This document shows positions 3,001 through 58,988 of a stretch of DNA of 64,000 bases, one piece after another. Origin of the DNA: an uncultured virus (IMG/VR IMGVR_UViG_3300038393_002953) (taxonomy: Duplodnaviria; Heunggongvirae; Uroviricota; Caudoviricetes); IMG/VR virus record IMGVR_UViG_3300038393_002953; one strand, given 5' to 3'. Both the position numbers and the translations under genes were made by a program. Each line of letters opens with the position of its first letter. Position 1 is the stretch's first letter. The notes beneath the pieces are model-generated. The model searched no databases and was not told where the DNA came from. It saw only the letters and a list, made by a program, of their open reading frames with translations.

Positions 3001-5466
3001 CAGCTCTACGGCCAGCGCAACGCGCTCTCGAACCCCGACCTCGTGCAGGAGGAGGGCACGCGCGTGATCTTCACGACGACGGGCGACCTGACCCGCAACC
3101 CCTTCCTGCCCAAGCTCTACGCGACCGCTCCGGGCCTCAGCGCGGGCGAGGCCATCAAGGCCGCGATCTCGCGAGACGCCTTCAACGGCGGCTCGGACTC
3201 GGGCTTCATCTTGGGCTGGCTGCCTAGCGGATCGACGCACGTCTCTGACGTCATCAACTCCTGCTCGAACATCCTGGTGGTGGACGAGCCGAGCGCGGGC
3301 GAGGTCGGGCACTGGTTCGAACAGCCCCACGACGGCAGCGGCAACGCGATCGGCTGCTCGACCTGGTGGTTACCCTCGCGTCCGGCGGGCGAGGTTTTCC
3401 CCGGCTCCTGGGAACTCGACTGGGACGGCTTCGCGCTGGGCGAGACCTTCACGGAGTTGAAGATCGAGCCGACCTCGCCCTCCTCGCTGGGCTGGCCGAA
3501 GGTCGGCAACGTCCTCAAACCACGCCAGCTCCCCTGGAGCGTGACGATCCCCGGACGCTCCGGCACGTCGCCGGAGTTCGGCTGGTGGTCGCCAGAGGGC
3601 AAGGCCCAGAACCTCTACTACCTGAATAGCAACCCTGCGACCCAGAACGCCGACCATATGAAGATCCTGGAGGATCGCGTGCGCGGCGGCTACGTGCAGG
3701 ACGCGCGCTTCTCGCTCGCGACGCCCATGGCCCCGAGCGACGACCGCATCGCCACGCAGGCGCTGAGCGTGCCCGACGACGAGCGCTACTTCGAGCTGTT
3801 CACACTGGACTTCGGCAAGGAGATCGAGGTCGGCGAGATCGGCCTGGCGGTCGGCTACGCGCCCTACGCCCTGGAGGCATTCGGAGGCGCCCAGGCGCAG
3901 ATCGGGCTCGGCCCTCAGGCCAAGCACTTCCGCTGGATCGTCAAGACCGGCGGCAAGACCTTCAACGCGCCCGGCGACAACGTGAGGATCAAGCTGTACG
4001 ACATCGCGGGCTTCGCCGACCCGACGCCCGAGTGGGACGGCGGCGACGTCTACGGCGCGCTCGCGGCCAGCACGACCTGGAACGTGGACGTCAACGCGCT
4101 CGGAGAGCCCGGCTGGCTCAAGGACGCGGTGCGCTTCTGGGTCACGCACGAGGACAACGCGATCCGCTCGACGCAGGGCGGCGCGCCCGTCTGCGAGTTC
4201 TTCCTCCAGCTCGAAGTCGGCAAGATCGCCGAGACCATGCTGACGGCAGACGGCGACCCGGTGACCACCAACGCGATCCAGTGGCAGGTGATCACGACCG
4301 ACCAGCGCCTGATCACCCGCCCCGAGTTCTACAAGTGGGCCGAGGACTTCTTCAAGAATTACCCCGTCTCTGGCCGCTACCTGCGCCTGCGCGCGCGCCG
4401 CGTCTCGCCGGTGGAATACTCGGGCTTCCTGACCCGCTGCCACAACCCCCAGCCCTTCGCGGGCGGCGGCAACAACACCGGGCTGAACGTCACGAGCCGC
4501 CTGCGCTACAAGGGCACGAACGCGCTAGCGGGCGGCACCTACGCGCTGACGCTGCGTCGCCACGAGGACGGCTCCTCGCGCTACGCGATCGGCTGGAACG
4601 GCGCCGAGACCGATTACTTCTCCTGGGCCTCCGGGCGCTCGTTCGACCTGGACGGCGGCCAGGCCGGTATCCTGACCGTCTCGCTCCAGAACGCGGCGCC
4701 CTACCTGCTGCCGGGCGACGTGCTGTCTGACGACCTCCAGGTCGCGGACACGATCGTCCTGGAGGGCAAGCGCCACATCGGCAACGGCGAATACTGGTAC
4801 GCGGGCGTCAACCTGCTGCCGTCCTTCGCGATCCGCTCGACAGAAGGTACCAACCGAATGAAGCTGGCGCCCTGGTTCGGCGCGCTGCCGCCGGTCTTCT
4901 ACCACGTCAAGGCGATCTCGATCCAGAAGCTCTACGTCCTCCAGAAGGCGCAGATCCGCCAAGAGGCGCTGCTCCAGCCCGATCCCCTGGGCGCCGACCC
5001 GCGCGCGAACGAGTGGTACGATCCGAAGATCGCGGCGCTGGGCGATGGGCTGGGCGATCGCCGCGTGGCCTACCAGGCCGCCTCCGTGCCGCGCCGCTCG
5101 ATGACCCGCCTGGATCGCAACGGCAGGCGCCATCATGCCTTCAATCATCGATCGATGCTGAAGCAGGATCCCTCCTCCTACACCGAGGGGCGCGCGCTCA
5201 CCACGGCCTGGCAGGTCCTCCAGGAGGCCAAGGTCCCGCGCCAGGGCGCCTCGGTCAACGTGGTCTACTTCCCCGAGCTTCGCGTGTTCCAGACCGTGCT
5301 GGTGGACGAGCGCTGCGTCAAGGGCGTGGTCTACCACGACTACACCGACCCCGACCAGGGGCCGATCGAGCCGTTCGGGCGCACCATGCTGATCGGCAAG
5401 CTCTCGATCAGCAAGCAGGGGCCGACGCCCTCCTCGTCCATCACGCTCCGAGACTACCAGGGGTAA
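1..5466 (+). CDS. Very large putative virion structural protein (tail/baseplate-like), 5'-truncated by the window edge
   Basis: Frame is open from base 1 (AYHNPDW...) into the 1770-aa ORF; high GC3 codon bias; upstream of the lysis cassette; no enzyme motif recognised. Confidence 0.6.
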   Translation, partial: AYHNPDWNAALLPDPTQPSGHPSHQYVWVDRFLGLVSAPTPSNAEGKPALNVNCQDFMKLAAKAETQRVYAPLMVTNDCRLDASRLPLAADNSDDFDTNKVLYDPRRTSRSLKDFAYGMRPVNFQNVKEEVLASIGPDGKSALSVNQDWSPVPEPQIFMEALRCNDDGTIANPTSPTVANGAIVRWYDSYEPTGKPVRVDRWNGIDMALDRFFDPNKGAADHAFISNYGNWSLVIDTMVDIANAVDDPTASGIALFALYCEGGVKVYWDGQEIASKPGETTLADFANFLTQGAQPQPELGYQALPTNRAIVQPADDGVIAWTADIVPKGDDGKSVKLHHLKIIYQCGSHVGNRNILRLRWWGRTAAQRNALIQNASALEASVVMRTYNEDASSPSAKEGWGYRNKLAKALFFTNSTTPPTGVEAANQRIGDLKAAQVEENDYEDPLYPGVSNDQSVMSGGTNFTMASNAFVSALNYIIQKTDESAPGSFIGWAQDADAPDPQWHDAAIGRHYRIPHLGEIPPYADLLVARLPVEKSDPEWGYNALYTRGGIEFNLPVPSLGQLISGPGAGSSRLFPAAKYVYKAQRGSLTVDDLISDIMIEDAFGVDRYTGAFSDAVNAFNPPAELPLYTLMRQGWWEQHASGGALVAYGPVVGSGGYGTDLIGGGAFPGVGAPGVSVFLPKVALGQVQQAPDTLRLDLETAANSHEAIRKVLDVLKSNFYLNADEYGRVRGRYLMQDGLPRLIPPAYPALQPDNRDREFYCMTAIGYNRTMDLPQDVVVEDGENPPMPLKLDRETTFSGEVVMDVPDTTQPINGTSYPAAPNPYPADTNTLPERVLFFQPVFLSSSASDPNGVSVSDRDLSDRDHISSYRLYRRRWNWSARRWQWDSVDIPANADGTPAPTPFTNTYRGFYALSESRQTDTYKVFWVVGPDKVDAWSLDVAPPPTQNYDPRELVEEAAYSTDAPAARTIRPLVVGYDYRLSAITSLSFPRDDFDQVTRVQLYGQRNALSNPDLVQEEGTRVIFTTTGDLTRNPFLPKLYATAPGLSAGEAIKAAISRDAFNGGSDSGFILGWLPSGSTHVSDVINSCSNILVVDEPSAGEVGHWFEQPHDGSGNAIGCSTWWLPSRPAGEVFPGSWELDWDGFALGETFTELKIEPTSPSSLGWPKVGNVLKPRQLPWSVTIPGRSGTSPEFGWWSPEGKAQNLYYLNSNPATQNADHMKILEDRVRGGYVQDARFSLATPMAPSDDRIATQALSVPDDERYFELFTLDFGKEIEVGEIGLAVGYAPYALEAFGGAQAQIGLGPQAKHFRWIVKTGGKTFNAPGDNVRIKLYDIAGFADPTPEWDGGDVYGALAASTTWNVDVNALGEPGWLKDAVRFWVTHEDNAIRSTQGGAPVCEFFLQLEVGKIAETMLTADGDPVTTNAIQWQVITTDQRLITRPEFYKWAEDFFKNYPVSGRYLRLRARRVSPVEYSGFLTRCHNPQPFAGGGNNTGLNVTSRLRYKGTNALAGGTYALTLRRHEDGSSRYAIGWNGAETDYFSWASGRSFDLDGGQAGILTVSLQNAAPYLLPGDVLSDDLQVADTIVLEGKRHIGNGEYWYAGVNLLPSFAIRSTEGTNRMKLAPWFGALPPVFYHVKAISIQKLYVLQKAQIRQEALLQPDPLGADPRANEWYDPKIAALGDGLGDRRVAYQAASVPRRSMTRLDRNGRRHHAFNHRSMLKQDPSSYTEGRALTTAWQVLQEAKVPRQGASVNVVYFPELRVFQTVLVDERCVKGVVYHDYTDPDQGPIEPFGRTMLIGKLSISKQGPTPSSSITLRDYQG

Positions 5467-33902: not shown

Positions 33903-34748
33903 ATGTCGGAACTCATCATCGTTGGCGCCGGGTCGGCGTTCAACGCCAAGGCCGGGCATTGCTCGGCGCTGATCAAGAGCGGCAAGGCGGGTGTCCTGCT
34001 CGACTGCGGCGCGCTGGTGCCCTTCGCGCTCCAGGACGCCGGGCTGATCGACGACGTGACCCACGTCCTGGTCTCGCACGGCCATGCCGACCACATCGGC
34101 GGCATCGAGCCGCTCGCGCAGATCCGCTACTTCGTCTCCCTGAAGGGCTACCCGCTGATGGGCAAGCCCTCCGTGCCGGTGCCCGCCCTGGTGGCGCCCC
34201 AGCGCATGATCGACGTCCTCCGGACCGAAGAGGTGCGCGGGCTGGGCAAGATTCAGGATGACTTCGGTCGCCCGCTTAACGCCACGCTGGAGACCTACTT
34301 CGACCTCGACGTCATCGAGGCCTTCAGCACGTTCTGCCCTGAAGGCGCGGACGACATGCTCGGCCTGCGCTACCTGCACGCCGATCACGTCCCGGGCGAC
34401 TTCCCCGCCTACTCGTTCGAGGTGATCGCCTCGCAGCCTTACAGGTCGCAGCGCCGAATCCTCTGGAGCGCGGACACCCGCGTGCCGCTGCGCGTGGACG
34501 GCTACGATCTCGTCTTCCACGACTGCCAGCTCTTCCAGGGACCGAACCGGGGCGGCGGCGACGTCCACGCCTACTTCGACGATCTGGTCGCGGCGATCCC
34601 GCCCGAGCAGCGCGGCAAGGTCTGGCTGATGCACTTCGGCAAGAACGTGGACGCCTGGCGCGAGAAGGCCGCCGAGGCCGGGTTCGCGGGCTTCGCCCAG
34701 CCGGGTCAGCGCTTCGACCTCCGCACCTGCACCCCCATCGACGCCTAG
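33903..34748 (+). CDS. MBL-fold hydrolase, Apyc1 (anti-Pycsar)-like cyclic nucleotide phosphodiesterase
   Basis: GAGSAF, LLDCG, SHGHADHIGG, HVPG, SADTR, FHDCQL, VHA, LMHFG. Confidence 0.75.
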   Translation: MSELIIVGAGSAFNAKAGHCSALIKSGKAGVLLDCGALVPFALQDAGLIDDVTHVLVSHGHADHIGGIEPLAQIRYFVSLKGYPLMGKPSVPVPALVAPQRMIDVLRTEEVRGLGKIQDDFGRPLNATLETYFDLDVIEAFSTFCPEGADDMLGLRYLHADHVPGDFPAYSFEVIASQPYRSQRRILWSADTRVPLRVDGYDLVFHDCQLFQGPNRGGGDVHAYFDDLVAAIPPEQRGKVWLMHFGKNVDAWREKAAEAGFAGFAQPGQRFDLRTCTPIDA

Positions 34749-36629: not shown

Positions 36630-39600
36630 ATGAGTGAGAAGTCGCTGAGCGTGTTCCTGCGGCGTCCGGCCCCCGAGGCCGCGCCCGCCCCCGCGCCGGA
36701 GCCGCCTGCGGCCTCCTGGGAGGCGCCGCCGCCCGCGCTCGTGCTGCCCTCGCTGGCGCCGCCGACGCTGCCCGGCGGGGAGACGCCGGTGGTCTCGATC
36801 ACGCCGATCGCGCCGCTGTCCCAGGGCGCCCCGCTGCCGCCGCCCGCGCCGACCGCGCAGGCATTCTACGTGCCCGCCGGGCTCTCGCCCGCGCAGTACC
36901 TGGCGCGCCTGGACGACGAGCAGCGCGCGCTCGCCATGGCGATCGACGGCCCGGTGCGCGGCATCGCCGGGGCGGGATCGGGGAAGACGTCAACCTTCGT
37001 GCGCCGCATCCTGCACATGGTCGTCCAGGGTATCCCCCCGCACCAGATCCTCGCGACGACCTTCACCAAGAAGGCCGCGAACGAGATGACCTCGCGCCTG
37101 CGTGCGCTCTTCAAGGACTTCGGCCTGCCCTGGGCCGAGGGCTTCGCGATCGGCACGATGCACTCGCTCGCCTCGCGGATCTGCCGCGAGTACGGGCGTT
37201 ACATCGACCTCGACACGTCCTACACGATCATCGACCAGGACGACGCCGAGACCATGATCAACCGCCTGATCAAGAGCGTGATCGGCAAGGACACCAAGGT
37301 CAGCGACCGCGATCTGCTCGACGCGATCTCCTACGCCCGCAACGCCCGCGTCCGCCTGCGCGACGCGCTGGAGATGAAGATGTCCACCTTCGGATCGCTG
37401 TTCGGCGCGTTCGAGCGCATCGCCGACCAGTACGTCGAGGACAAGCGCAACATCAACGTCATGGACTTCGACGACCTGCTGGAGAAGTGGCTGGAGCTGC
37501 TGGAGTTCTCGCCCGAGGCCAAGGCCGCCATGCAGGGCCGCTGGCGCTACGTCATGATGGATGAGTACCAGGACACGAACACGCTCCAGAACGAGATCCT
37601 GCGCCACCTCTGCGAGAACCACCGCAACATCTTCGTGGTCGGCGACGACAAACAGTGCCTGCCCGGCGATACGCTGATCCGCACGCCCGAGGGCGACCGT
37701 CCCATCTCGCAGATCCGCGAGGGCGATCTGGTGCTTTGCGCCGCCGGGCATGGGCGGTCGGCCTTCGGTCGGGTTGACAAGGTGTTCTCTCGCCCGGTGA
37801 GCGAGTCCCTTTACCAGATCCGCCTGGCTTCGGGTCGCACCGTGCGCGCCACGGGGAACCACGTCGGTTTCGCCCGGCTCCCCATCAAGCCCGGTCGCCA
37901 TTACGTCTACCTGATACACCGCGACGATCTGGGCTACCGGATCGGCAAGACAGCCAGTATGGCGCAAACGTCCTCCGAGGGCCGCTGCAAGGACGCCAGC
38001 GGGCTCAAGGTCCGCGCCAACCAGGAGCGCGCCGACGCCGCCTGGGTGCTGGGGGTCTACGACTCCGAGCAGGAGGCCCAGCGCATGGAGCAGATCCTGT
38101 CGCTGCGCTACGGCGTGCCCCAGACCATGTTCGTGGCGCGCGGCAAGCTGGACGAAGGCGACATCCAGGCGATCTTCGCCGAGGGCGCCCAGCGCTGGCG
38201 CGTGGAGGACCTGATGGCCGACTTCGGCCTGGACCCCCGCTTCCCCCACTACTTCCCCCAGAACTGCGCGCGCGGTCGTTTCTCGCGCCAGCAGGTCAAG
38301 TTCGCCATGTTCTCGGGGTCCCGCAACATGCACCGCGTATCGCTTGAGACCCGTGACGCCGACGTGCATGATCTCGTCACGACCCATGCCTGGCGCGAGA
38401 GCAAGGCGGGCAAGAAGATCGAGAAAAACAGGGCTTCCTACGACGAGGCCCTGTGTGTGGCAGAGGTGCTGGCGAACGAAGGCGGGCTTGAGATCCGCAA
38501 GTCGGCGCTCATGGTGGACGGCGATCGCGCCTTCCCCTTCCTGCCTGTTTCGTCCTTCCGCGTCGGCATGGAGGTGCCTTCCTACGATGGCGAGGCGGTG
38601 GTGACCGATACGATCGTCGAGATCGTTCGCCTTGAGGCTGAGCCGCAGACGGTCTGGGATCTCTCGGTGCCGGAGTACCGCAACTTCGTGGCCGATGGCG
38701 TGGTTGTCCACAACTCGATCTACGCCTTCCGCGCCGCCAACGTCGAGAACATCCTCACGTTCGAGCAGCGCTGGCCCGGCTGTCAGACCTTCTACATCTC
38801 CAGCAACTACCGCTCGACGCCGCAGATCGTCGCGGTGGGCAACTCGCTGATCGCCAAGAACTCGCGCCAGCTCCCCTACGTCGCCCAGACGCCCAACGCC
38901 AACGGCATGAAGCCGATGGTGATCCGCTCGGAGAACGACGGCGAGCAGGACCGCGACATCGTGGAGAAGATCACCTTCTACCACGAGGAGCATAACGTTC
39001 CCTACGACGAGATGATGGTGCTGATGCGCCAGAACCGCCAGTCGATCATGCTGGAGCGCGACCTCGTGCGCGCGGGCATCCCCTACTACAAGCGCGGCCC
39101 GCAGTTCTGGCGCTCGCAGCACATGAAGATGGTGCTGGCCTGGGTCAAGCTGCTCCAGAACCCGATGGAGAAGCTCGCGCTGGCCCGTGTGGTCGCGCTC
39201 TACCCCGGGCTAGGCAAGAAGGCGATCGACGACGCCTCCAAGGCGATCGAGAAGCCCGAGGACTTCGACCGCTTCATGCGCGGCGAGATCGCGCTCGGCA
39301 AGGCGGCGGGCTGGCTGAAGTGCCAGGAGGATCTGCGCGAGATCGTCGAGGCCTACCGCTCCGGCGCCCCCCGCTGCCTCCAGGAGTCGCTGGGCCGCCT
39401 GCGCGCGGTCGCCGAGCCCTTCATCCTCGACATGGAGAAGGCCGACAGCCGCCTCGCCGACGTGGACACGATGCTCGCGCTGGCCGAGGGCTTCGAGAAG
39501 GTCGAGGATCTGCTCGAAGAGATCGCGCTCCAGGACGAGTCCTCGGGTTCCAAGGAGAACCGCGTCCTGCTCTCCACGATCCACGGCGTCAAGGGCCTGG

Positions 39601-39851
39601 AGTGCCGCATCGGCTTCATCATGGGCATGAACGAGGAGATCTTCCCGGGCAACGTCACCTCCCTGGCCGATCTGGAGGAGGAGCGCCGCCTGGCCTACGT
39701 CGGCATCACCCGCCCCAAGGAGATCCTGATTATGTACGCGCCGCTCATGCAAACCGGTACGGCTGGTCGCAAGCCTGGAGAGCTGACGCCTTCGCGCTTC
39801 CTGGACGAGATCGATCCGGACCTCCTGATTGTCAAGGGCACGGTCTCTTGA
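36630..39851 (+). CDS. uvrD: UvrD/PcrA-like SF1 helicase containing an intein
   Basis: AGAGSGKT, TFTKKAA, DEYQD, GDDKQ|SIYAFR, NYRS, STIHGVKGLE, EERRLAYVGITR. Confidence 0.95.
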   Translation: MSEKSLSVFLRRPAPEAAPAPAPEPPAASWEAPPPALVLPSLAPPTLPGGETPVVSITPIAPLSQGAPLPPPAPTAQAFYVPAGLSPAQYLARLDDEQRALAMAIDGPVRGIAGAGSGKTSTFVRRILHMVVQGIPPHQILATTFTKKAANEMTSRLRALFKDFGLPWAEGFAIGTMHSLASRICREYGRYIDLDTSYTIIDQDDAETMINRLIKSVIGKDTKVSDRDLLDAISYARNARVRLRDALEMKMSTFGSLFGAFERIADQYVEDKRNINVMDFDDLLEKWLELLEFSPEAKAAMQGRWRYVMMDEYQDTNTLQNEILRHLCENHRNIFVVGDDKQCLPGDTLIRTPEGDRPISQIREGDLVLCAAGHGRSAFGRVDKVFSRPVSESLYQIRLASGRTVRATGNHVGFARLPIKPGRHYVYLIHRDDLGYRIGKTASMAQTSSEGRCKDASGLKVRANQERADAAWVLGVYDSEQEAQRMEQILSLRYGVPQTMFVARGKLDEGDIQAIFAEGAQRWRVEDLMADFGLDPRFPHYFPQNCARGRFSRQQVKFAMFSGSRNMHRVSLETRDADVHDLVTTHAWRESKAGKKIEKNRASYDEALCVAEVLANEGGLEIRKSALMVDGDRAFPFLPVSSFRVGMEVPSYDGEAVVTDTIVEIVRLEAEPQTVWDLSVPEYRNFVADGVVVHNSIYAFRAANVENILTFEQRWPGCQTFYISSNYRSTPQIVAVGNSLIAKNSRQLPYVAQTPNANGMKPMVIRSENDGEQDRDIVEKITFYHEEHNVPYDEMMVLMRQNRQSIMLERDLVRAGIPYYKRGPQFWRSQHMKMVLAWVKLLQNPMEKLALARVVALYPGLGKKAIDDASKAIEKPEDFDRFMRGEIALGKAAGWLKCQEDLREIVEAYRSGAPRCLQESLGRLRAVAEPFILDMEKADSRLADVDTMLALAEGFEKVEDLLEEIALQDESSGSKENRVLLSTIHGVKGLECRIGFIMGMNEEIFPGNVTSLADLEEERRLAYVGITRPKEILIMYAPLMQTGTAGRKPGELTPSRFLDEIDPDLLIVKGTVS
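37656..38714 (+). mobile_element. Intein (353 aa) in UvrD motif III
   Basis: CLPGDT...TGNH...VVHN|S; removal restores GDDKQSIYAFR. Confidence 0.95.
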
Positions 39852-45432: not shown

Positions 45433-47769
45433 ATGTCCACTCTCAAGCCGCTCAACCAGAAGGACAAGAAGGCCGCGATCACCAATGCGCTGGCCCAGAT
45501 CAACAAGCAGCATGGCGAAGGCACCGCCATGATGATGGGCGCCAACAAGCACATGCAAGTCGAGGCGCTCTCGTCGGGCATCCTCTCGATCGATCTGGCG
45601 ACCGGCGTGGGCGGCGTGCCCAGGGGCCGCGTGGTCGAGATATACGGCCCTGAGTCCGGCGGCAAGTGTCTGGTCGCTGATACCTTGATCGCGACGCCCG
45701 GCGGCCTCAAGACGATTGCCGAAGTCTTCGAAGAGAACGGCCTTCCTGCTTCTTGCGTCTCTCGCACTACCGAGAAGCGCGTTCCGCTGATCAACCGGTA
45801 TGGCGAGGTGGAGTACACGACGCATTTCACCCACAACAACCGTCGCAAGGTCGCCAGGATCACCACCTTCACTGGCGCGCAAACCACTTCGACTCTCAAC
45901 CATCCTCACCTCGTTTTGAGCGTGCGCGGAAACCTGGTCTGGCGCAAGACCTCGGATCTCCGCGTGGGCGACATACTCGTGGCGCCTCGTAGCCTGCCTT
46001 TCGGTGAGGCACGCCGTGACGCAGATGAGATGTACATGCTCGGCCTGCTCGTCGCGGACGGCACGCTGGGCGAAAACCGCGTCCAGGTCACGAACGACGA
46101 CCCGGTGGTCAAGAGCTTCGTCGAGGAGCGCATGCCCGCGCTCGTGGGCGCTGGCCCGAAGTCTTACGTCAACAACGAGCGCGGCAGCGTCAACTACCAC
46201 TTCAACGGCAAGGAGGCCGTCTCCGACCTGTACGCGCGCTACGGGCTCGATCCCGTCAAGGCCTCGGGTAAGGAAGTACCCAGGCTCGTCCGCGAGTCGG
46301 ACCGCGACGCGGTGCGGGAGTTCCTGCGCGGCTACATGGACTCCGAGTGCTCGATCGACCTGGAGAAGTGCGGGATCGAGGTCACCTCGGCCTCCGGCAA
46401 GCTGCTGCGTGGCGTCAAGCTGCTGCTCCAGCAGTTCGGCATCGTCTCGCTGCTCCGTCCCAAGGAGGTCAAGGGCTACGAGCAGAACGATTACTGGCGC
46501 CTGACCGTCACGGGCCGCGACGCGCGGCTGTACGCCGAACGGATCGGCGCGCGCTCCGAGATCCGGCGGGCGCAATTGATGGCGCTTCCCCAGCGGGAGC
46601 AGTTCCAGACGAACTACGACTCGATCCCCCACCTCGGCGGCATGCTGCGCGATCTCTACGACTCGTGCGAGACGACTCGCCATGAGTCGGATCTGCTCTG
46701 CGACTACATGGGCGACGAGCCGCGCGCGAGCCTGACCTACGATCGCCTCAAGCAGATCGTCGAGACGCCCGCGTTCCAGGATGCTCCGATCCTCGCTGCG
46801 CTCCGTCGCTTCGCCGAGGACGAGTACCTTTTCGACGCGGTGGTCTCGATCGAGGACGGGGGAGAGCAACCGACGTTCGACTTCGCCATGGAGCGCACGC
46901 ACTCGTTCGTCGCGAACGGCCTCGTGACCCACAACACCACCACCACGCTCCACTTCGTCGCGGAGTGCCAGCGGCGCGGCGGCCAGTGCGCCTTCGTGGA
47001 CGCGGAGCATGCGCTCGACCCGGCCTACGCGAAGGCGCTCGGCGTGGACGTGGACACCCTGATCGTCTCGCAGCCGGACTACGGCGAGCAGGCACTCGAC
47101 GTCGTGGAGTCCCTCGCGGCCTCCGGCGCGATCGACCTGATCATCGTGGACTCCGTGGCCGCGCTCACGCCCAAGGCCGAGATCGAGGGCGAGATGGGCG
47201 ACTCCCAGGTCGGCGCCCAGGCCCGCATGATGGGCAAGGCCATGCGCAAGCTGACCGCGACCGCCGGGCGCACGCGCTGCACGATCATCTTCATCAACCA
47301 GATCCGCGAGAAGGTCGGCGTCATGTTCGGCAACCCCGAGGTCACGACGGGTGGGCGCGCGCTGCGCTTCTTCTCGTCGATGCGCCTGGAGGTCCGCCGC
47401 GTCGAGACGATCAAGGTGGACGGCCAGGAGGTCGCCAACCGCGTCAAGGTCAAGCTCGCCAAGAACAAGGTCTCGCGCCCCTTCACGGTCGCCGAGGCCG
47501 AGCTGACCTTCGGGTTCGGCTTCTCGCGCGCCGCCTCGATCCTCGACACCGCCGAGGCCAACGGCCTGATCCAGAAGTCCGGCGCCTGGTACGCTTACAG
47601 CGGCCAGAAGATCGGGCAGGGCCGCGCCAAGGCGATCGAGTTCCTGAACGCCAACCCCGAGATCGCGGACAAGCTGGACAAGACCCTGCGCGAGAAGTTC
47701 TTCGCGGCGCCCACGACCCTCGACCCGACCGTCAGGGACGACGAGGAAGATCAGGAGCAGGAGGACTAG
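45433..47769 (+). CDS. recA: RecA recombinase containing an intein
   Basis: GRVVEIYGPESGGK|TT, DAEHALD, DSVAAL, FINQIREKVGVMFGNPE. Confidence 0.97.
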   Translation: MSTLKPLNQKDKKAAITNALAQINKQHGEGTAMMMGANKHMQVEALSSGILSIDLATGVGGVPRGRVVEIYGPESGGKCLVADTLIATPGGLKTIAEVFEENGLPASCVSRTTEKRVPLINRYGEVEYTTHFTHNNRRKVARITTFTGAQTTSTLNHPHLVLSVRGNLVWRKTSDLRVGDILVAPRSLPFGEARRDADEMYMLGLLVADGTLGENRVQVTNDDPVVKSFVEERMPALVGAGPKSYVNNERGSVNYHFNGKEAVSDLYARYGLDPVKASGKEVPRLVRESDRDAVREFLRGYMDSECSIDLEKCGIEVTSASGKLLRGVKLLLQQFGIVSLLRPKEVKGYEQNDYWRLTVTGRDARLYAERIGARSEIRRAQLMALPQREQFQTNYDSIPHLGGMLRDLYDSCETTRHESDLLCDYMGDEPRASLTYDRLKQIVETPAFQDAPILAALRRFAEDEYLFDAVVSIEDGGEQPTFDFAMERTHSFVANGLVTHNTTTTLHFVAECQRRGGQCAFVDAEHALDPAYAKALGVDVDTLIVSQPDYGEQALDVVESLAASGAIDLIIVDSVAALTPKAEIEGEMGDSQVGAQARMMGKAMRKLTATAGRTRCTIIFINQIREKVGVMFGNPEVTTGGRALRFFSSMRLEVRRVETIKVDGQEVANRVKVKLAKNKVSRPFTVAEAELTFGFGFSRAASILDTAEANGLIQKSGAWYAYSGQKIGQGRAKAIEFLNANPEIADKLDKTLREKFFAAPTTLDPTVRDDEEDQEQED
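45667..46935 (+). mobile_element. LAGLIDADG intein (423 aa) in the RecA Walker A motif
   Basis: CLVADT...TLNH...LGLLVADG...FLRGYMDSE...VTHN|T. Confidence 0.95.
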
Positions 47770-52153: not shown

Positions 52154-53137
52154 TTATTCGTGGTCGCGCCAGCCGCCCAGGCGGTGGCAGGCGATGTTGA
52201 AGGCGGTCTGGTTGCCGTCGTTTCCGACGAACTTGAGGCCCAGCTTGGCGGCGGCGACGCCCGCCGCGCACGAGCCGAAGAAGGGGTCGGCCACGACGTC
52301 GCCGGGGTCGGTCACCATCGAGAACAGGTATCGCATCAGGCCGACCGGCTTCTGCGCGGGGTAGCTGCTCGCGGTGTCGGGGTTCCCGTCCTTGTCCTTG
52401 GTGTGGTACCAGTAGTGCCCGTCCGGCGCGAGCCATTTCTCGGCGTCCTGGATGTACCATTTCTCGGCGTCGCTCGCGGTCGGGTGCGTGATGATCGTCT
52501 TGACCTGCGTGGGTTTGGTGGCGACGTAGCGCTCGCCGCAGTAAGGGCAGAACGTGTGTCCTGCCTTGCCGACCCGCCCGCACTTCGACTTCTTGCAGTA
52601 GGGGATCCGGTTAGCATGCTTGATGGCATCGTAGTTGAATTTGTGCAGCAGCTTGCCGCCAGGCCCCTTGCCGGGCGTGGCCCAGAGGATCGTCTCGTGG
52701 TCGTCCGTGAGCTGGCGGCAGCCGAAGTTCGGCGGCGGCGCGGGCTTCTCCCAGACGATCTCGTTCAGGATGTGGAAGCCCAGTTTCTGCATGGCGAACG
52801 CGATCGAGCCGATGCAGTGGTGCGTGCCCGAGATGAAGATCGAGCCGGTGGGCTTGAGGACGCGCTGGGCCTCGGTCAGGAATTCCAGGAAGAACGCATG
52901 GTCGTTCTCGGGTCCCCGGGAGACGTCCCAGTCGCCCTTGTGGACGCTGACGCGGCGACCGCCGTGGACCGTCGTGCCGCCGTTGGAGAGCAGGTAGGGC
53001 GGATCGGTGTTGATCGCGTCGAGCGACGCGTCCTCCAGCGAGCGCATCATCTGGATCGAGTCGCCCCGGGTCAGCGTGGCGTCGCCGACGGTCCGGCGCT
53101 CCTGACACCAGTCAGGCAGTGGTGGCGTCTTCTGCAT
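52154..53137 (-). CDS. DNA N6-adenine/N4-cytosine methyltransferase with Zn-ribbon insertion
   Basis: TDPPY, EIVWEKP, YPAQKP, DPFFGS; CKKSKC...CPYC insert. Confidence 0.9.
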   Translation of the reverse strand: MQKTPPLPDWCQERRTVGDATLTRGDSIQMMRSLEDASLDAINTDPPYLLSNGGTTVHGGRRVSVHKGDWDVSRGPENDHAFFLEFLTEAQRVLKPTGSIFISGTHHCIGSIAFAMQKLGFHILNEIVWEKPAPPPNFGCRQLTDDHETILWATPGKGPGGKLLHKFNYDAIKHANRIPYCKKSKCGRVGKAGHTFCPYCGERYVATKPTQVKTIITHPTASDAEKWYIQDAEKWLAPDGHYWYHTKDKDGNPDTASSYPAQKPVGLMRYLFSMVTDPGDVVADPFFGSCAAGVAAAKLGLKFVGNDGNQTAFNIACHRLGGWRDHE

Positions 53138-53267
53138 TCGCGTCCCTTCCTTTGGCACGGCGCATTCATAATGGTTCCGCTCGTAGATGGCGTGAAGCCT
53201 GTGGCGGCAAGGGTCTCGGGGCGGCGCCGTCGCTCTCTTACCCGAATATATCCATCATATCACGGTC

Positions 53268-53296
53268 TTGATCTGTCGGGAAGGGCGTGATAACAT
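53268..53296 (+). promoter_or_regulatory. Promoter of dnaE
   Basis: TTGATC-17-TAACAT with extended TG. Confidence 0.6.
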
Positions 53297-53327
53297 CTGG
53301 AAAGCAAAGGCTGTTCAGGAGAACCAC

Positions 53328-55925
53328 ATGAAGCGGCGATTCGTTCACCTCCACGGGCATTCCCAATATTCGCTCCAGGACGGCGCGAGCCGCATCGACA
53401 AGCTGGTGGGCGCGGTGGTGGCGAACGGCATGGACGCGGTGGCGCTGACCGACCACGGCGTCATGTACGGCTCGCTGGAGTTCTACAAGGAAGCGCAGAA
53501 GAAGGGCATCAAGCCCATCATCGGCTGCGAGGCCTATATCTGCAAGAATCGTAACGAAAAGGTCGGCGGCAACAAGAAGGACCACGAGAACCGCACCTAC
53601 CACCTGGTGCTGCTGGCGGAGAACAAGAAGGGCTACCTGAACCTGTTGAAGATGGTCTCGGAGGCCAACACCCGGGGCTTCTACTCCAAGCCGCGCATCG
53701 ACCACGGCCTGCTCTACGAGTGCCGAGAGGGTATCATCGCGCTTTCGGCCTGCCTGGGCGGCGAGGTCTCGCAGCACCTGCTCAAGGGCGACTACGAGCG
53801 CGCCAAGGCGATCGCGATCTACTACGATCAGCTCATGGGGCGCGGCAACTACTTCCTGGAGATGCAGGACCACGGCATCGAACTCCAGCGCCAGGTCAAC
53901 GACATGCTGCGCCGCATCTCCGTCGAGACTGGGATCCCGCTCGTCGTGACCAACGACTACCACTACGTCGAGCATGGGCACCACAAGCACCACTGCGCGC
54001 ACGTCTGCTCGGGCCAGCGCAAGACGGTCAACGACCCCACGGCCTACGAGGCCTACTCGACCAAGCAGTTCTACATCAAGAGCCCCGAGGAGATGTGGGC
54101 GATCTTCCCCAACGACCCCGAGGCGCTGCTGAACACCGTGCGCATCGCGGACCGCTGCAACGTGCTGGTCGAGATGGGCAAGTATATCCTGCCGGATTTC
54201 CCGGTTCCGGAAGGTTACACCGAATCTTCCTACATGCGCAAGCTCGCTTGGGAGGGCCTCGCGATTCGAGGGCTCGACCAGGACCCCGCCTGCCGGGAGC
54301 GCCTCACCTACGAGCTGGACATGATCGACCAGATGGGCTTCCCGGGTTACTTCCTGATCGTCCAGGACTTCATCAACTGGGCGCGCGGCAAAGACATCCC
54401 CGTGGGGCCAGGGCGCGGCTCTTGCGCTGGCTCGCTCGCGGCTTATTGTCTCCAGATCACCGACATCGAACCGCTCAAGTACGACCTTCTCTTCGAGCGC
54501 TTCCTCAATCCGGACCGCATCTCGATGCCCGATATCGATACGGACTTCTGCATCGAGCGGCGCGGCGAGGTGATCCAGTACGTCCAGGACAAGTACGGCG
54601 CCGACAAGGTGTCCGGCATCGGCGCGATCGGCACGCTCGCGGTCAAGGCCTCGATCAAGGACGTGGGCCGCGTCTTCGGCTTCGACTTCCAGACCATGAA
54701 CCGCGTCTCGAAGCTCGTGCCCGACGGCCCCAACCACACCTGGGACGATCCCGACGTCGCGGGCGAAGGCTCCGAGCTGATGAAGGTCTGCAAGAACGAC
54801 CCTCGGCTCATGGAGGTCGTCGAGCTGGCGAAGGAACTCGGCCCGCGCCGCAAGGACGGCAAGGAGACCAAGGGTATCGCGCGCAACATCTCGAAGCACG
54901 CGGCGGGCGTGATCATCGGCTCAGATCCGCTGGAGACCTGCGTGCCGCTGTTCTTCGACCGCAAGAGCGCCTCGACGATCCCGAACACGCAGTGGGACAT
55001 GGTGTGGAGCGAGAAGCTCGGCCTGGTCAAGATGGACTTCCTCGGGCTGCGCAACCTGACGGTCATGCGCAAGGCCCGCGACATCATCCACCAGTCCACC
55101 GGCGCCTGGATCGACCTGCGCACGCTGCCGCTGGACGACCCCAAGGTCTACGACCTCTTCAAGGCGGGCGATCTGCTGGGCATCTTCCAGGTCGAGGGCG
55201 AGGGCATCTCAGAGGTCGCGCAGCAGATCGCGCCGACCAACATGGAAGAGATCGGCGCCATCCTGGCGCTCTACCGCCCGGGCCCGATGGACTCCGGCGC
55301 CATGCAGGAGTACATCGACCGCAAGGCGGGGCGCAAGTCCGTCTCCTACGACCACCCGGATCTGGAGCCGATCCTCAAGAAAACCTACGGCTGCATGATC
55401 TACCAGGAGCAGGTCATGCAGACCGCCGTGGCGATCGCGGGCTACACGATGCCGATGGCCGACAACCTGCGCAAGGTAATGGGAAAGAAGGACATGAACA
55501 AGATCGCCGAGGAGTGCGATCGCTTCGTCAAGGGCGCGGTCGCCAAGGGCCACGACGAGACCTGGGCCAAGAAGCTGGCGGACGACATCTCGAAGTTCGC
55601 GCGCTACGGCTTCAACAAGTGCCTGATGGGGGACACGCTGATCCGGGATACGGAGGGCAATGTCCGCACGATCCGTGAGATGTGGGAGACGCCACCGCCC
55701 AAGGGCACCAAGCTGCACAGCGTCACGCCCGAGGGCCAGGTGGTCGAGAACGACTTCATCGAGGCGTTCCCTACGGGCAAGAGGAAGGTGGTCCGCGTGA
55801 AGACGCGCGACGGTCGGGTGGTCGAGTGTACGCCGGATCACAAGTTCCTGACCCCGGACGGAACGTACAAGACCATCGCCGAGATCGGTGTCGGAGGCCA
55901 GATCGTTGCGGCAAAGCTTGATTGA
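53328..55925 (+). CDS. dnaE: DNA polymerase III alpha N-terminal part fused to split intein N-half
   Basis: PHP HLHGHS/TDHG, GPGRGS, MPDIDTDF, KMDFLGL, YGFNK then CLMGDT...TPDHKF and stop. Confidence 0.95.
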   Translation: MKRRFVHLHGHSQYSLQDGASRIDKLVGAVVANGMDAVALTDHGVMYGSLEFYKEAQKKGIKPIIGCEAYICKNRNEKVGGNKKDHENRTYHLVLLAENKKGYLNLLKMVSEANTRGFYSKPRIDHGLLYECREGIIALSACLGGEVSQHLLKGDYERAKAIAIYYDQLMGRGNYFLEMQDHGIELQRQVNDMLRRISVETGIPLVVTNDYHYVEHGHHKHHCAHVCSGQRKTVNDPTAYEAYSTKQFYIKSPEEMWAIFPNDPEALLNTVRIADRCNVLVEMGKYILPDFPVPEGYTESSYMRKLAWEGLAIRGLDQDPACRERLTYELDMIDQMGFPGYFLIVQDFINWARGKDIPVGPGRGSCAGSLAAYCLQITDIEPLKYDLLFERFLNPDRISMPDIDTDFCIERRGEVIQYVQDKYGADKVSGIGAIGTLAVKASIKDVGRVFGFDFQTMNRVSKLVPDGPNHTWDDPDVAGEGSELMKVCKNDPRLMEVVELAKELGPRRKDGKETKGIARNISKHAAGVIIGSDPLETCVPLFFDRKSASTIPNTQWDMVWSEKLGLVKMDFLGLRNLTVMRKARDIIHQSTGAWIDLRTLPLDDPKVYDLFKAGDLLGIFQVEGEGISEVAQQIAPTNMEEIGAILALYRPGPMDSGAMQEYIDRKAGRKSVSYDHPDLEPILKKTYGCMIYQEQVMQTAVAIAGYTMPMADNLRKVMGKKDMNKIAEECDRFVKGAVAKGHDETWAKKLADDISKFARYGFNKCLMGDTLIRDTEGNVRTIREMWETPPPKGTKLHSVTPEGQVVENDFIEAFPTGKRKVVRVKTRDGRVVECTPDHKFLTPDGTYKTIAEIGVGGQIVAAKLD
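55620..55922 (+). mobile_element. Split intein N-fragment (101 aa)
   Basis: Block A CLMGDTLI and block B ECTPDHKFLT. Confidence 0.92.
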
Positions 55926-57069
55926 CAACCGGGAGCGCGTGATCGCCGTTTACGAGGGCGGCATGACCTGCCGAGAGGTCTGGCAGGCCATGCCGGAACT
56001 CGGCATCTCGCGCGACGCGACGATCGCCAGCGCGCTGCGCGAATGGGGCGTCCAGATGCGTCCCCGTCGCCCAAGGCAGGCGCTGACCGGCCAGCAGGAG
56101 GCGCAGGTCGTCGAGCTTTACCGCTCCGGGCTGTCCGCGCCTCAGATCATTGAGCGACTTGGCCTCTCCGCGTCGGTGGGCCCCATTCATGCGCTGCTGG
56201 ATCGTGCGGGAATCGACGCTCGCGATGCGGGGCATTATAAGAAGGGTCGAGCGCCGGTAAACAAGCGATTGTCTGATGAGATGGAGGGCGCGATGGTGGA
56301 GGCGTACCTCGGTGGGCGATCGGCCCAGCGGGTCGCCGACGACTTCGGCTTCAAGACCGACAAGACGGTGCTGGACGTGCTTCACAAGCGTGGCGTAGCG
56401 GTCAAGGAGGGGTCGCGCGACTACGCGCTCGACTCCTGCTGGCACGAGGCGTTCGCCGACGTTCAGACCGAGGAGCAGGCGTACTGGCTGGGCATGCTGA
56501 TCACCGATGGCTGGATCTCGAAGGCGTCCGAGAAAGACGCATGGCAGGTTGGGCTCCAGCTCAAGGAAAGCGACCTGGCGCACATCGAGAAGTTCAAGGC
56601 ATTCCTGAAGTCTGACTCCAAGATCTCGCGGGTCAAGAAGATCCACGAAGGTAAGACCTACTGGATGTATCGGCTGATGGTCAACTCGCGCCAGATGAAA
56701 CGTGACCTGGAAAAGTACGGCGTCGTCGAGCGGAAGAGCGACAAGACCTTCTTGCCCGAGCTTCGGCCCGATCTGATGCGGCACTTGTTGCGCGGCATTC
56801 TGGATGGAGATGGGTGTATTTTTAGGTCTTACGGCGTTCTTGAAGGTGTCACTTTCTCTGGTTCGGAGTGCCTTGTGCGAACTATCGCTGTGTTGCTGAA
56901 CGCAACGCTAGGGGTTGCGCAGAACAAGGTTCGCGGTAAGGGCATGTGCAAGAGTCACGCCTGGGCTGCCAGGGAGGACGTTTCCAGGATTCTGAATTTC
57001 CTGTATAACGATTGCCATGTCGCTCTTGAGCGTAAGTTCTCTCTTTATAAGGAGTGGTTTGATGCCTGA
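55918..57069 (+). mobile_element. Free-standing LAGLIDADG homing endonuclease with N-terminal HTH-like repeats
   Basis: AYWLGMLITDG and LLRGILDGDG; start uncertain (TTG 55918 or GTG 55888). Confidence 0.9.
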
Positions 57070-58423
57070 GTTGATGATCGACGAGATTGAGAGCATCGAA
57101 TATATAGGGGAGGATGAGACCTACTCCTTAGAGATGGCCGACCCCTATCACAATTACCGACTTGGAAATTCTCTTATTAGTTTGAATTCCCATTCCGTGG
57201 CTTACGCCTTCATCGCGTACCAGACTGCCTGGCTCAAGGCGAACTACCCGCGCCAGTACATGGCCGCGCTCCTGTCGTCGGTGGTCGGCAACCACGAGAA
57301 GATCCAGGTCTACATCGACAACTGCCGCCGCATGAACATCCCGATCCTGCCGCCCGACGTGAACCACTCGGAGGAGGACTTCTCGGTGGACGCCTCCGGC
57401 GCGATCCGCTTCGGCCTGGGCGCGGTCAAGAACGTCGGCGCCGACGTGATCCGCCAGCTGATCGCGCACCGCAAGCGCGTGGGAGGCTTCCGCGACCTGA
57501 ATCACTTCTACGCCGAGGTCGGTCTTTCGCTCTGCAACGCGCGCGTGATGGAGAGCCTGATCCGCGCGGGTTGCTTCGACTCCATGGGGGTCCACCGCAA
57601 CGGGCTGCTCCAGCAGTTCCCGCTGATCCGCGAGGCCTACTCGAAGGCCATGAAGAAGGGCAAGAAGCAGATCCCGGGCCAGACCATGCTGTTCCAGCTC
57701 GCGACCCGCTTCGTGGCAGATCCAGTGGCCGTGCCCGAGTGCGAGGCGTTCACGCGTCTCCAGTGCCTGGCGGACGAGCGCGAGAAGATCGGCACCTACG
57801 TCTCCGGCCACCCGCTCGACGACTACGCGCTGGGCCTGCCCTACCTGACCACGATCGACGTCTCGCCCAAGCAGCCCGATGCGGTCGAGGAGGATGCCGA
57901 GGAAGGCACGGAGGCGCCGGTCGCGCCCTGGCCCGCCGAGAACGAGCTGATCGCCATGGCTGGCATCCTGACCCGCACGCGCAAGATCACCACCCGCACC
58001 ACGGGCGCGGCCATGATGCTCGGCGAGATCCAGAACAAGTACGGCTCGATCAAGGTCGTCTTCTTCCCCAAGACCTTCGAGGCCTACGGCGACTGCCTGG
58101 GCGAGGACGTCTTCGTCTCGGTGATCGGCAAGTTCAAGATGGACGGCGACACGCCCGAGATCATGGCCGACAAGGTGGTCCCGCTCGACCAGGCGCGCGT
58201 GATGGTGGTCAGGCTGCCTGCCGACATGGACGGCACGGGCGTGCTGCCCATCAAGGCTGCGCTCGGCGGCGGCGACACCCCGGTGGTGTTCGTCAACCAG
58301 CACCGCCCCGGCGAACACGTCGTCGCGCACCCCTCGCTCTGGGTCAAGCCTTCCGAGGAGCTGGAGGCGCGCATCTACCGCTTGTGCCGTGGCGTCACCC
58401 TGGAGGTGCGCCGCCTCTTCTAA
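57062..58423 (+). CDS. dnaE: Split intein C-half (42 aa) fused to DNA polymerase III alpha C-terminal part
   Basis: AAGGAG RBS; IESIEYIGEDETYSLEM...SLN|SHSVAY; PPDVN, IRFGLGAVKNVG, YVSGHPL, OB fold. Confidence 0.95.
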   Translation: MPELMIDEIESIEYIGEDETYSLEMADPYHNYRLGNSLISLNSHSVAYAFIAYQTAWLKANYPRQYMAALLSSVVGNHEKIQVYIDNCRRMNIPILPPDVNHSEEDFSVDASGAIRFGLGAVKNVGADVIRQLIAHRKRVGGFRDLNHFYAEVGLSLCNARVMESLIRAGCFDSMGVHRNGLLQQFPLIREAYSKAMKKGKKQIPGQTMLFQLATRFVADPVAVPECEAFTRLQCLADEREKIGTYVSGHPLDDYALGLPYLTTIDVSPKQPDAVEEDAEEGTEAPVAPWPAENELIAMAGILTRTRKITTRTTGAAMMLGEIQNKYGSIKVVFFPKTFEAYGDCLGEDVFVSVIGKFKMDGDTPEIMADKVVPLDQARVMVVRLPADMDGTGVLPIKAALGGGDTPVVFVNQHRPGEHVVAHPSLWVKPSEELEARIYRLCRGVTLEVRRLF

Positions 58424-58433
58424 GGAGCCGGTC

Positions 58434-58988
58434 GTGTCCGTCTTCAAGTTCGACAGGGACGTCAACTTCGAGGGGATGGTGTCCATCGAGGACGCCATCT
58501 CCGCCTTGTATGCGGGCCGGGCCGTCAGCATGATCGACCTGCCGATCGCGTGGCGATCGCCCAGCACCGCCATCCCGGTCCCGCTGGTGATCAAGGCGGT
58601 CCGACCGCGCAAGGGGCGCTTCCCGGAGGCGGTTCCGCTGACGCGCGAAAACATAATGAAACGCGACGAGACCTGCCAGTATTGCGGCGTGGGCGGCAGG
58701 CTGACGATCGATCATGTCGTGCCCCAGGCTCACTTCAAGAGCGGCAAGGCCGCCTTGCGCCACCCGGGCCTCAAGGTCTGGTGCTGGGAGAACGTGGTCG
58801 CGGCCTGCGCGCGCTGCAATAACCGCAAGGCCAATCGGACGCCCGAGGAAGCGGGGATGAGGCTGCTACGCAGACCGTTCGTGCCGCGCCCCGCCGACAT
58901 CCTGAAGAGTCAGACGGTCTGGGATCGCATCGCGGAGTGCATGCGCGAACACGGCATGGGGGATTCTTCGTCCATGGGGTTGACGTAG
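58434..58988 (+). CDS. HNH endonuclease (McrA-like)
   Basis: RDETCQYCG...LTIDHVVP...WENVVAACARCNNRK. Confidence 0.92.
   Translation: MSVFKFDRDVNFEGMVSIEDAISALYAGRAVSMIDLPIAWRSPSTAIPVPLVIKAVRPRKGRFPEAVPLTRENIMKRDETCQYCGVGGRLTIDHVVPQAHFKSGKAALRHPGLKVWCWENVVAACARCNNRKANRTPEEAGMRLLRRPFVPRPADILKSQTVWDRIAECMREHGMGDSSSMGLT

Follow-up and report, generated by a model that had tools for sequence, protein, structure and literature searches.

A fractured dnaE gene in an uncultured soil phage, with a free-standing LAGLIDADG endonuclease gene between the halves of a predicted split intein

How can a phage obtain an intact DnaE, the alpha subunit of DNA polymerase III (Pol III), from a gene that is interrupted by a gene for a different protein? 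The question is raised by positions 53328-58423 of a 64,000-nucleotide stretch of DNA from an uncultured soil phage (IMG/VR record IMGVR_UViG_3300038393_002953; the whole stretch is referred to here as the window). In this region dnaE is split at the sequence YGFNK/SHSVAY (here and below a slash marks a splice site) into a gene for the N-terminal part of DnaE joined to the N-terminal part of an intein (DnaE-N and IntN), a gene for a protein with helix-turn-helix (HTH) and LAGLIDADG domains, and a gene for the C-terminal part of the intein joined to the remainder of DnaE (IntC and DnaE-C). We consider it likely that this is a genuine fractured gene, in which an intein was invaded by a free-standing HTH-LAGLIDADG gene and the two intein halves would splice in trans to produce DnaE.

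Three overlapping reading frames and two closed junctions

The three open reading frames (ORFs) of the locus lie on the + strand in three different frames and overlap one another, and each has its own Shine-Dalgarno site, as read from the sequence. The frame of ORF1 is open from 53268 and its likely start is the ATG at 53328, 6 nt downstream of a Shine-Dalgarno-like AGGAG (53317-53321). Its first 764 codons (53328-55619) encode the DnaE N-extein, which comprises the PHP, Pol III alpha catalytic and finger domains (Pfam PF02811, PF07733, and PF17657) and ends in ARYGFNK. These codons are followed directly by an IntN of 101 residues (CLMGDT to AAKLD; 55620-55925, with the coding part ending at 55922 and the stop codon TGA at 55923-55925). 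ORF2, the putative homing-endonuclease gene, is open from 55888 to 57069 and probably starts at TTG 55906, 8 nt downstream of a Shine-Dalgarno-like GGAGG within the end of IntN (55893-55897), to produce a protein of 387 residues (55906-57069); alternative starts are GTG 55888 and TTG 55918, the latter being where the recorded gene call (P0121) begins. The overlap with IntN amounts to 20 nt and that with IntC to 8 nt. ORF3 starts at ATG 57062, 7 nt downstream of an AAGGAG (57049-57054), and encodes an IntC of 42 residues (MPELMIDE to SLISLN; 57062-57187) followed by the DnaE C-extein of 411 codons and a stop (57188-58423), which begins SHSVAYAF and contains helix-hairpin-helix (HhH) and OB-fold domains (PF14579, HHH_6, and PF01336). 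In P0002, the closest intein-less DnaE that was found (46% identical), the corresponding sequence is YGFNKSHSIAY.

Much of this layout had been proposed in an earlier interpretation made from the nucleotide sequence without database searches (the sequence-only reading). It described three ORFs in three frames with a 101-residue IntN after YGFNK/CLMGDT, an HTH-LAGLIDADG ORF of about 380 residues, and a 42-residue IntC ending in SLN/SHSVAY with its own AAGGAG ribosome-binding site. The set was reproduced down to the residue counts, with both Pfam domains present in the 387-residue product from TTG 55906; the placement of the ribosome-binding site and IntC was off by at most one base. A scan for promoters (sigma-70-like sites) and terminators was empty on the + strand of the locus, and RNA folding at the two internal starts was no better than that of shuffled sequences (z +1.72 for 55860-55950 and z -0.35 for 57010-57100).

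The two intein halves are separately encoded, as IntN is ended by the stop codon at 55923 and IntC has its own Shine-Dalgarno site and ATG at 57062. From the IntN stop to the IntC start there are 16 stop codons in the DnaE-N frame, 13 in the DnaE-C frame and none in the endonuclease frame, and the insert between the exteins (55620-57187) measures 1568 nt, a length not divisible by 3, so that one or two indels cannot restore a contiguous intein. We also compared positions 53000-58700 of the window with Logan contigs assembled from four further runs. Across the junctions, matches without differences or gaps came from runs belonging to three other studies: one contig spans both junctions (X3 record 6, 55825-57508), one spans the first (X5 record 20, 55610-56538) and two span the second (X5 record 21, 56690-57349; X4 record 13, 56227-57950), each with 0 differences. 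This support comes from contigs rather than raw reads, so that rare variants would vanish, and the supporting runs are all soil or rhizosphere samples from 2025 that may belong to one common campaign. The sequence-only reading had named indels fusing the three ORFs into one contiguous intein as a result that would overturn it; the independent contigs contain no such indels and the frames are closed.

The intein halves and the gene between them

IntN aligns over its length (except that its last residue is misplaced) with the N-terminal parts of contiguous inteins found at the same site, and IntC aligns with their C-terminal ends. In this alignment the break between the halves coincides with the HNH insert or the short linker of the contiguous relatives and lies between blocks B/N4 and F/C2, the insertion point of endonuclease domains. 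The N-terminal nucleophile, Cys1 (55620-55622), directly follows YGFNK, and block B contains the Thr-x-x-His motif as T71-P-D-H74. On the C-terminal side, IntC has the block F His (His30) and the terminal Asn (Asn42), and the C-extein begins with Ser+1. C1, H74 of block B, T78, and G81 on the N side and H30, N42, S+1, and H+2 on the C side are invariant in 9/9 aligned rows. These features support the assignment of the halves to a natural class-1 split intein with all class-1 splicing residues, and IntN and IntC would be expected to splice in trans; it is plausible that the pair could serve as an orthogonal protein-ligation tool. The penultimate His of block G is absent, its place being taken by Leu41, and both the lack of this His and the Ser at +1 had been remarked upon in the sequence-only reading. 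Only one of the eight contiguous relatives has a penultimate His and the other seven have a different residue there, which argues that this His is not a strict requirement in this intein family.

A profile built on the IntN part had its best match to a solved structure in the gp41-1 intein (E 3e-13) and also matched DnaB, DnaE, and RecA inteins in the PDB. IntN scored below the gathering threshold of the Pfam Intein_splicing family (25.1 bits vs. a cut-off of 35.8, E 1.7e-5), because it represents only half a domain. Homolog searches limited to IntC (residues 1-48) or to IntN (residues 745-865) produced nothing at E ≤ 1e-3 and are uninformative as to whether relatives exist.

Another split intein of the same host protein is the cyanobacterial Ssp/Npu DnaE intein, which resembles that of the window in being class-1, in having halves of about 100 and 40 residues and a Cys1, and in its complementary charges. 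However, it is inserted four residues upstream, at FAEY/CFNK, and has Cys at +1 (PMC3154154, from the part of its text that was available), whereas the site in the window is K/S; the distance proposed in the sequence-only reading holds against the end of the Ssp IntC (AAN/CFNK). The Ssp/Npu halves are classically encoded at separate loci with no endonuclease gene, whereas those of the window are linked with a gene between them, and the sequence relation is distant (profile E about 1e-9). The window intein is unrelated to the cyanobacterial one in both site and lineage, as the sequence-only reading had suggested.

Dassa et al. (2009; PMC2677866), cited here and below from the part of the text that was available, describe opposite local charges as a signature of natural split inteins, with positive N and negative C halves in gp41-1 and gp41-8 and the reverse polarity in Ssp/Npu DnaE; the contact between a charged IntN strand and IntC in the fold is also taken from their description. 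Taking the strand as the 21 residues before block B, the window has a charge of +5 on the IntN strand and -9 on IntC, and so shows the opposite local charges of fractured genes. In the LAGLIDADG-split inteins of other viruses and bacteria described below (four viral and six of nine acidobacterial loci) the strand ranges from -3 to -7 and IntC from +4 to +10, and all 13 of these relatives have a negative IntN and a positive IntC, a polarity opposite to that of the window. The strand ranges from -5 to +1 and IntC from -7 to +3 in eight contiguous relatives of the HNH or mini type. The closest relative of the window intein, in locus L227, is contiguous with a nested endonuclease gene and has a strand of +4 and an IntC of -6. 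As a contiguous intein shares it, the charge pattern is a lineage trait and no proof of adaptation to the split, and the proposal that charge complementarity arose as an adaptation to splitting is withdrawn in part.

ORF2 has Pfam matches to HTH and LAGLIDADG_3 domains (about 41.5-41.6 bits vs. a cut-off of 22.5) and matches phrog_4645 (E 2e-45). Its product consists of three helical HTH modules (~180 residues) followed by a single-chain double LAGLIDADG core, in which the acidic residues of the two motifs, Asp201 (YWLGMLITDG; 56506-56508) and Asp302 (LLRGILDGDG; 56809-56811), are invariant in an alignment of 50 sequences, as are the adjacent residues G202 and G303, consistent with two LAGLIDADG helices. 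An AlphaFold model (mean pLDDT, the predicted local distance difference test score, 91.6) has two alpha-beta-beta-alpha-beta-beta-alpha halves at residues 189-269 and 288-367. Its best Foldseek matches were I-AniI, bI3 maturase, I-HjeMI, I-SmaMI, and I-SceI, at a probability of 1.00, with template-modeling (TM) scores to the target of 0.45-0.63 and identities to solved structures of 10-20%. ORF2 therefore shares its fold and two acidic motifs with monomeric LAGLIDADG enzymes such as I-AniI, bI3 maturase, I-SmaMI, and I-SceI and with phrog_4645, but in contrast to the LAGLIDADG enzymes of group I introns it has three N-terminal HTH modules and lies outside any detectable intron. A search with Rfam over 55300-57500 found no intron or other family at E ≤ 1, and there is no non-coding space in which an RNA core could surround the ORF.

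The family of ORF2 comprises 18,477 representatives at E ≤ 1e-3, and its top matches are mostly stand-alone proteins of 250-440 residues that align end to end; five longer matches that were scanned have additional HTH repeats and no intein domain. ORF2 has no significant similarity (E 1.8) to the in-frame LAGLIDADG intein of 427 residues that a cellular-type dnaE (L090) carries at this site. These comparisons identify ORF2 as an intact representative of a family of free-standing genes, not as a frameshifted intein domain.

Same-site relatives and the lineage of the element

Relatives were sought in several scans. An alignment of IntC and the adjacent extein was used to scan IMG/VR, from which 80 of 538 confirmed loci were kept and the 37 covering IntC were examined; an alignment of ORF2 and its nearest relatives produced a further 60 IMG/VR loci, 47 of which were examined, the other 13 being repeats of a neighbor's figures or contig-edge positions. 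Species-representative genomes produced 19 loci (15 examined), and a scan of metagenomes retained 80 loci, of which the 49 with a match beginning no later than query residue 30 were examined. When ORF2 alone served as the query, a viral scan detected no relatives; these came from the alignment-based scan.

Contiguous inteins occur at the same site in IMG/VR and GenBank phages, either as mini-inteins (L001/L016, L004, and Rhodococcus phage Trina) or with an HNH insert (L003/L011, L007, L009, L040, and L050). In the metagenome scan, 8/49 loci had a contiguous same-site intein (about 427 residues in L090) and the rest were intein-less cellular dnaE genes. Split forms are common as well: in 12 of the 37 IMG/VR loci an IntC-like stretch stands at the very start of the frame, on low-GC contigs and at the same dnaE site (GFNK/S...SN/SH). 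The arrangement of these loci varies. In two of them (L034, L044) an endonuclease gene of another family (phrog_559/3339) lies between the dnaE halves, in two members of a low-GC "marine" split family (L042, L043) the halves are adjacent with no endonuclease gene between them, and in five (L035, L037-L039, L049) the genes before IntC-DnaE-C are unrelated and include no DnaE-N ORF, so that the halves are unlinked. The inteins of the marine family start with Ser rather than Cys in three of the four loci in which the junction was read.

The layout of the window itself, DnaE-N-IntN followed by an HTH-LAGLIDADG gene and IntC-DnaE-C, was found at the same site in three IMG/VR contigs (L168, L169, and L186) and two residues downstream in a fourth (L187:460-5483; FNLSH/C...KN/STAY), whose endonuclease has 401 residues with extra HTH repeats. 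Two other IMG/VR loci (L170, L174) have a contiguous intein at the dnaE site of the window with an endonuclease gene nested in another frame, and in L173 and L213 the endonuclease gene adjoins dnaE. Among cellular genomes, nine metagenome-assembled genomes (MAGs) of Acidobacteriota (Pyrinomonadaceae, Chloracidobacterium, and others; L228-L236) have a dnaE that is fractured at FN[RK]/SHS with an intact HTH-LAGLIDADG gene, 39-43% identical to ORF2, between the halves. Their IntN is 109-116 residues long with a net charge of -14 to -20 and their IntC 38-40 residues with a charge of +4 to +6, IntN starting near position 3676 and IntC near 4786 in most of these loci. Across the LAGLIDADG-type relatives, the endonucleases are 31-44% identical to ORF2 and the halves have 92-116 (IntN) and 38-44 residues (IntC); in the window, as in the four viral loci measured, IntC starts within the end of the endonuclease gene. 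Overall, relatives of ORF2 were located in or beside dnaE in 8/47 of the IMG/VR loci and 10/15 of the genome loci.

Two further proteins came to our attention among these relatives. P0010 (445 residues) has an IntC-like start that ends in VHN/SHSTAY and continues into DnaE-C, and is probably another split allele at the dnaE site. The DnaE-like gene of Gordonia phage Wojtek (L006:2015-6055) has an HNH-type intein-like insert (YSF/C...HHN/NIAH) in which the residue after the terminal Asn is Asn instead of Ser, Thr, or Cys; either the boundaries are shifted or the element would be unable to splice in the standard way.

To place the window intein we used a tree of 25 inteins with their N and C parts joined (with six of the nine acidobacterial rows and without L032 and Trina). 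The sister of the window intein is L227, from a Chloroflexota MAG, with support of 99/96 (58/100 residues identical in IntN and 19/40 in IntC), and L227 also has the closest endonuclease to ORF2 (44% identity over residues 34-385). In L227 (1471-6486) an intein of 422 residues at the same site is contiguous within a DnaE ORF of 1672 residues, with the endonuclease gene nested out of frame. The exteins of the two loci are less alike than their inteins (~41% in the N-extein and ~33% in the C-extein), a pattern consistent with lateral transfer of the cassette. The viral and acidobacterial inteins that are also split by a LAGLIDADG gene fall on other branches of the tree, as does the marine split family. 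The free trees separate the window from the marine family (99/97), although an approximately unbiased test did not reject a single clade of the window and the marine split forms (p 0.145); we favor the view that the window intein was split independently of that family. The most economical reading, toward which we likewise lean, is that on more than one occasion this endonuclease family became nested within an intein at this site and subsequently split it.

Base composition sets one part of the cassette apart. The G+C content at third codon positions (GC3) is 0.93-0.95 in the exteins, 0.85 in IntN and 0.81-0.86 in the first 287 endonuclease codons, but falls to 0.59 over the final 100 codons of the endonuclease gene and to 0.57 in IntC, and it is back to 0.85-1.0 right after the splice site, within ~20 codons. 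This low-GC3 stretch (56776-57200, + strand) takes in the last ~100 endonuclease codons and all of IntC and ends sharply at the C-extein; total GC is 0.42-0.48 at 56985-57209. The sequence-only reading had described a drop in GC at about 56.8-57.2 kb as a mosaic junction. The drop is real as a feature of composition, but the mosaic interpretation found no support otherwise, as a blastn search of phage records with the low-GC block revealed no donor (just the C-extein part matched, to a Streptomyces phage dnaE) and IntN and IntC share their nearest relatives. The block might reflect partial gene conversion, with an allele of lower GC from the same lineage as the source. More speculatively, a single HTH-LAGLIDADG subfamily might be specialized on the FNK/SHS intein of dnaE in phages and bacteria, repeatedly converting contiguous inteins to nested and then split ones, with the window pair as a charge-swapped, orthogonal counterpart of the acidobacterial and low-GC phage pairs and the low-GC3 block as a recently exchanged cassette; we hold this broader scheme only tentatively, and doubt it more than we believe it. 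If it were true, IntC could travel together with the endonuclease gene.

Fractured genes, including three DnaE loci (DnaE-1 to DnaE-3), were described by Dassa et al. (2009). As in the window, the halves of those genes are in cis on one strand, in the order N half, endonuclease gene, C half, with split-intein halves and a free-standing endonuclease gene between them, the break falls between B/N4 and F/C2, the local charges are opposite and the context is phage-like. In the available text those DnaE loci are partial, their IntC in DnaE-3 has a non-His residue and Asn at its end and Ser at +1 and so resembles the marine IMG/VR IntCs at the site of the window (a resemblance only, as the integration points are absent from that text), and the endonucleases of the fractured loci are GIY-YIG or Vsr-like; that LAGLIDADG and HNH endonucleases "could fracture genes" is stated there as a prediction. 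The regulatory hairpin or late-promoter motif seen before the endonuclease ORF in many of the Dassa loci was not found before ORF2, and the window has no 5' hairpin there. The gp41-1 intein shares Ser+1 and the positive N/negative C polarity with the window, but it has a DnaB-type helicase as its host, another class of endonuclease and a penultimate His.

A second point of comparison is the study of actinophage inteins by Gosselin, Arsenault & Gogarten (bioRxiv 10.1101/2025.01.02.630785), of which likewise only part was available. There too the frame of the endonuclease differs from that of the intein, invasion of an intein by a free-standing endonuclease gene is proposed as the origin, and Pol III alpha is among the intein hosts; the in-frame HNH domains of its polymerase inteins resemble those of the HNH-type same-site relatives of the window. 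The accessible text describes antisense LAGLIDADG, antisense Vsr-like, and out-of-frame EndoVII-like genes in contiguous inteins, and contains no sense-strand HTH-LAGLIDADG gene that splits an intein.

In view of the 2009 loci and of the common same-site split inteins in IMG/VR, the suggestion in the sequence-only reading that a fractured Pol III alpha gene may be new was overstated, and a LAGLIDADG-type fractured dnaE is not unique to this phage either, the same layout being present in 4 IMG/VR contigs and 9 acidobacterial genomes. The literature searched contained no description of a LAGLIDADG-type fractured gene or of an acidobacterial fractured dnaE. What is new in the window is the intein lineage, the LAGLIDADG class of the nuclease, which was predicted in 2009, and a polarity opposite to that of the LAGLIDADG-split relatives.

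Proposed mechanism, alternative explanations and significance

The reading that we prefer runs as follows. A class-1 intein would have sat at the finger/HhH junction of Pol III alpha, between the Lys and Ser of YGFNK/SHS, and a free-standing HTH-LAGLIDADG gene in another frame would have invaded it at the usual position of an endonuclease domain. The dnaE frame would then have closed, leaving three proteins to be produced, each from an ORF that has its own start and overlaps its neighbor. Electrostatic steering may bring the basic IntN strand (+5) together with the acidic IntC (-9), and the halves may fold into one HINT domain, in which Cys1, the block B Thr and His, the block F His, the terminal Asn, and Ser+1 would perform standard class-1 trans-splicing, the product being a DnaE of 1175 residues joined at YGFNK-SHSVAY. 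The most likely role of the endonuclease is to cut dnaE alleles without its gene and thereby to spread the whole cassette by homing; this gene would be a passenger and is the probable cause of the split.

Several observations weigh against this interpretation. The charge pattern of the window is shared by the contiguous L227 (+4/-6), a penultimate Leu occurs in none of the eight aligned relatives (which have His, Cys, Gly, or Ser), and codon usage in IntC and at the 3' end of the endonuclease gene is foreign. The metagenome scan found no close relative of this phage, and as the window is part of a genome a second polymerase gene may be located elsewhere. In favor of the interpretation, the fractured dnaE is the sole Pol III alpha match in 5/5 acidobacterial genomes searched, and therefore the split layout must give a working polymerase there, but these genomes are MAGs whose completeness is not stated and a second dnaE may have been missed.

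Some of these same points would suit a dnaE that is freshly broken and non-functional, a contiguous intein having recently been destroyed while another polymerase replicates the phage, the frames being merely young. No close relative shows a conserved allele, the unusual Leu and the codon usage of IntC could mark a recent unselected event, and the rest of the phage genome could encode that polymerase. We nevertheless regard this explanation as improbable. All the splicing residues are kept, a strong AAGGAG-N7-ATG stands exactly at the start of IntC, and the exteins are intact over 764 and 411 codons with a host-like GC3 of 0.93-0.95. IntN and the first two thirds of the endonuclease gene are also nearly host-like (0.81-0.86), which indicates that the element is no newcomer, the identical sequence was recovered in runs of at least three further studies, and the same layout is that of the only dnaE found in the five acidobacterial genomes.

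Similarly little credence is given to the idea that the intein halves act as a dock, holding DnaE-N and DnaE-C together non-covalently with no splicing. The penultimate residue of an intein influences the rate of Asn cyclization, which a Leu at this position might slow, and strong opposite charges would be sufficient for association. However, Cys1, the block B Thr and His, the block F His, the terminal Asn, and Ser+1 are all kept, and the contiguous relatives must cis-splice to produce any DnaE, yet 7/8 of them have no penultimate His.

That ORF2 might instead reside in a group I intron within the intein gene, with RNA splicing restoring a contiguous mini-intein, is scarcely credible: annotations in Staphylococcus and Bacillus phages describe its distant relatives as intron-encoded endonucleases, but the Rfam search was negative, ORF2 spans the entire gap and overlaps both intein halves so that no non-coding core is left, and IntC has its own ribosome-binding site and start codon. 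An artifact, in which errors of sequencing or assembly broke the frame of a contiguous LAGLIDADG intein or of a nested one as in L227, is as far-fetched and is already refuted as far as the contigs reach: the sister locus is contiguous and the ORF overlaps at both junctions are where a single indel could hide, but the contigs of three studies are identical over both junctions, the 16 and 13 stops and the 1568-nt insert preclude a simple repair, and the in-frame RecA and UvrD inteins of the same window read through normally.

The window as a whole resembles part of a large phage genome. Its genes include those for ribonucleotide reductase, PhoH and dUTPase, for DnaB-type, UvrD-type, and SNF2 helicases and a primase, for RecA, RecJ-like, and RuvC proteins and for DNA methyltransferases, together with a weak tail-fiber match and many ORFs that match no family. 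A UvrD-like helicase of 1073 residues (36630-39851, + strand) has a contiguous in-frame intein (Hint_2 at residues 343-374 and the C part of Intein_splicing at 606-695), and RecA (778 residues; 45433-47769, + strand) has a canonical in-frame LAGLIDADG intein (Intein_splicing at 93-501 and LAGLIDADG_3 at 293-372), so that, with dnaE, there are three inteins within 22 kb of one phage-like genome. An HNH endonuclease gene (58389-58988, + strand) lies directly behind DnaE-C, its longest ORF overlapping the dnaE stop by 35 nt. Further upstream, a metallo-beta-lactamase-fold protein (33903-34748, + strand) matches the anti-Pycsar Apyc1 family (53.9 bits vs. a cut-off of 50).

Taken by itself the fractured dnaE of the window is one more fractured gene, and its value is that it completes a series. 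Four states are now seen at one splice site of an essential enzyme: contiguous inteins of the mini or HNH type, contiguous inteins with a LAGLIDADG gene nested out of frame, split inteins with that gene between the halves, and split inteins from which the nuclease gene is absent. Such intermediates are required by the model in which split inteins originate when an endonuclease gene invades an intein, as set out in the available parts of Dassa et al. (2009) and Gosselin et al. (2025). The pair in the window is small (101 + 42 residues), has Ser at +1 and a polarity like that of gp41-1, and with its same-site relatives of reversed polarity it forms a test set for charge-based orthogonality. A further suggestion from the relatives is that one group of soil Acidobacteria resembles the cyanobacteria in depending on protein trans-splicing for its replicative polymerase; if this is true, the Acidobacteria would be the second bacterial group, after the cyanobacteria, with a replicative polymerase that is dependent on a split intein.

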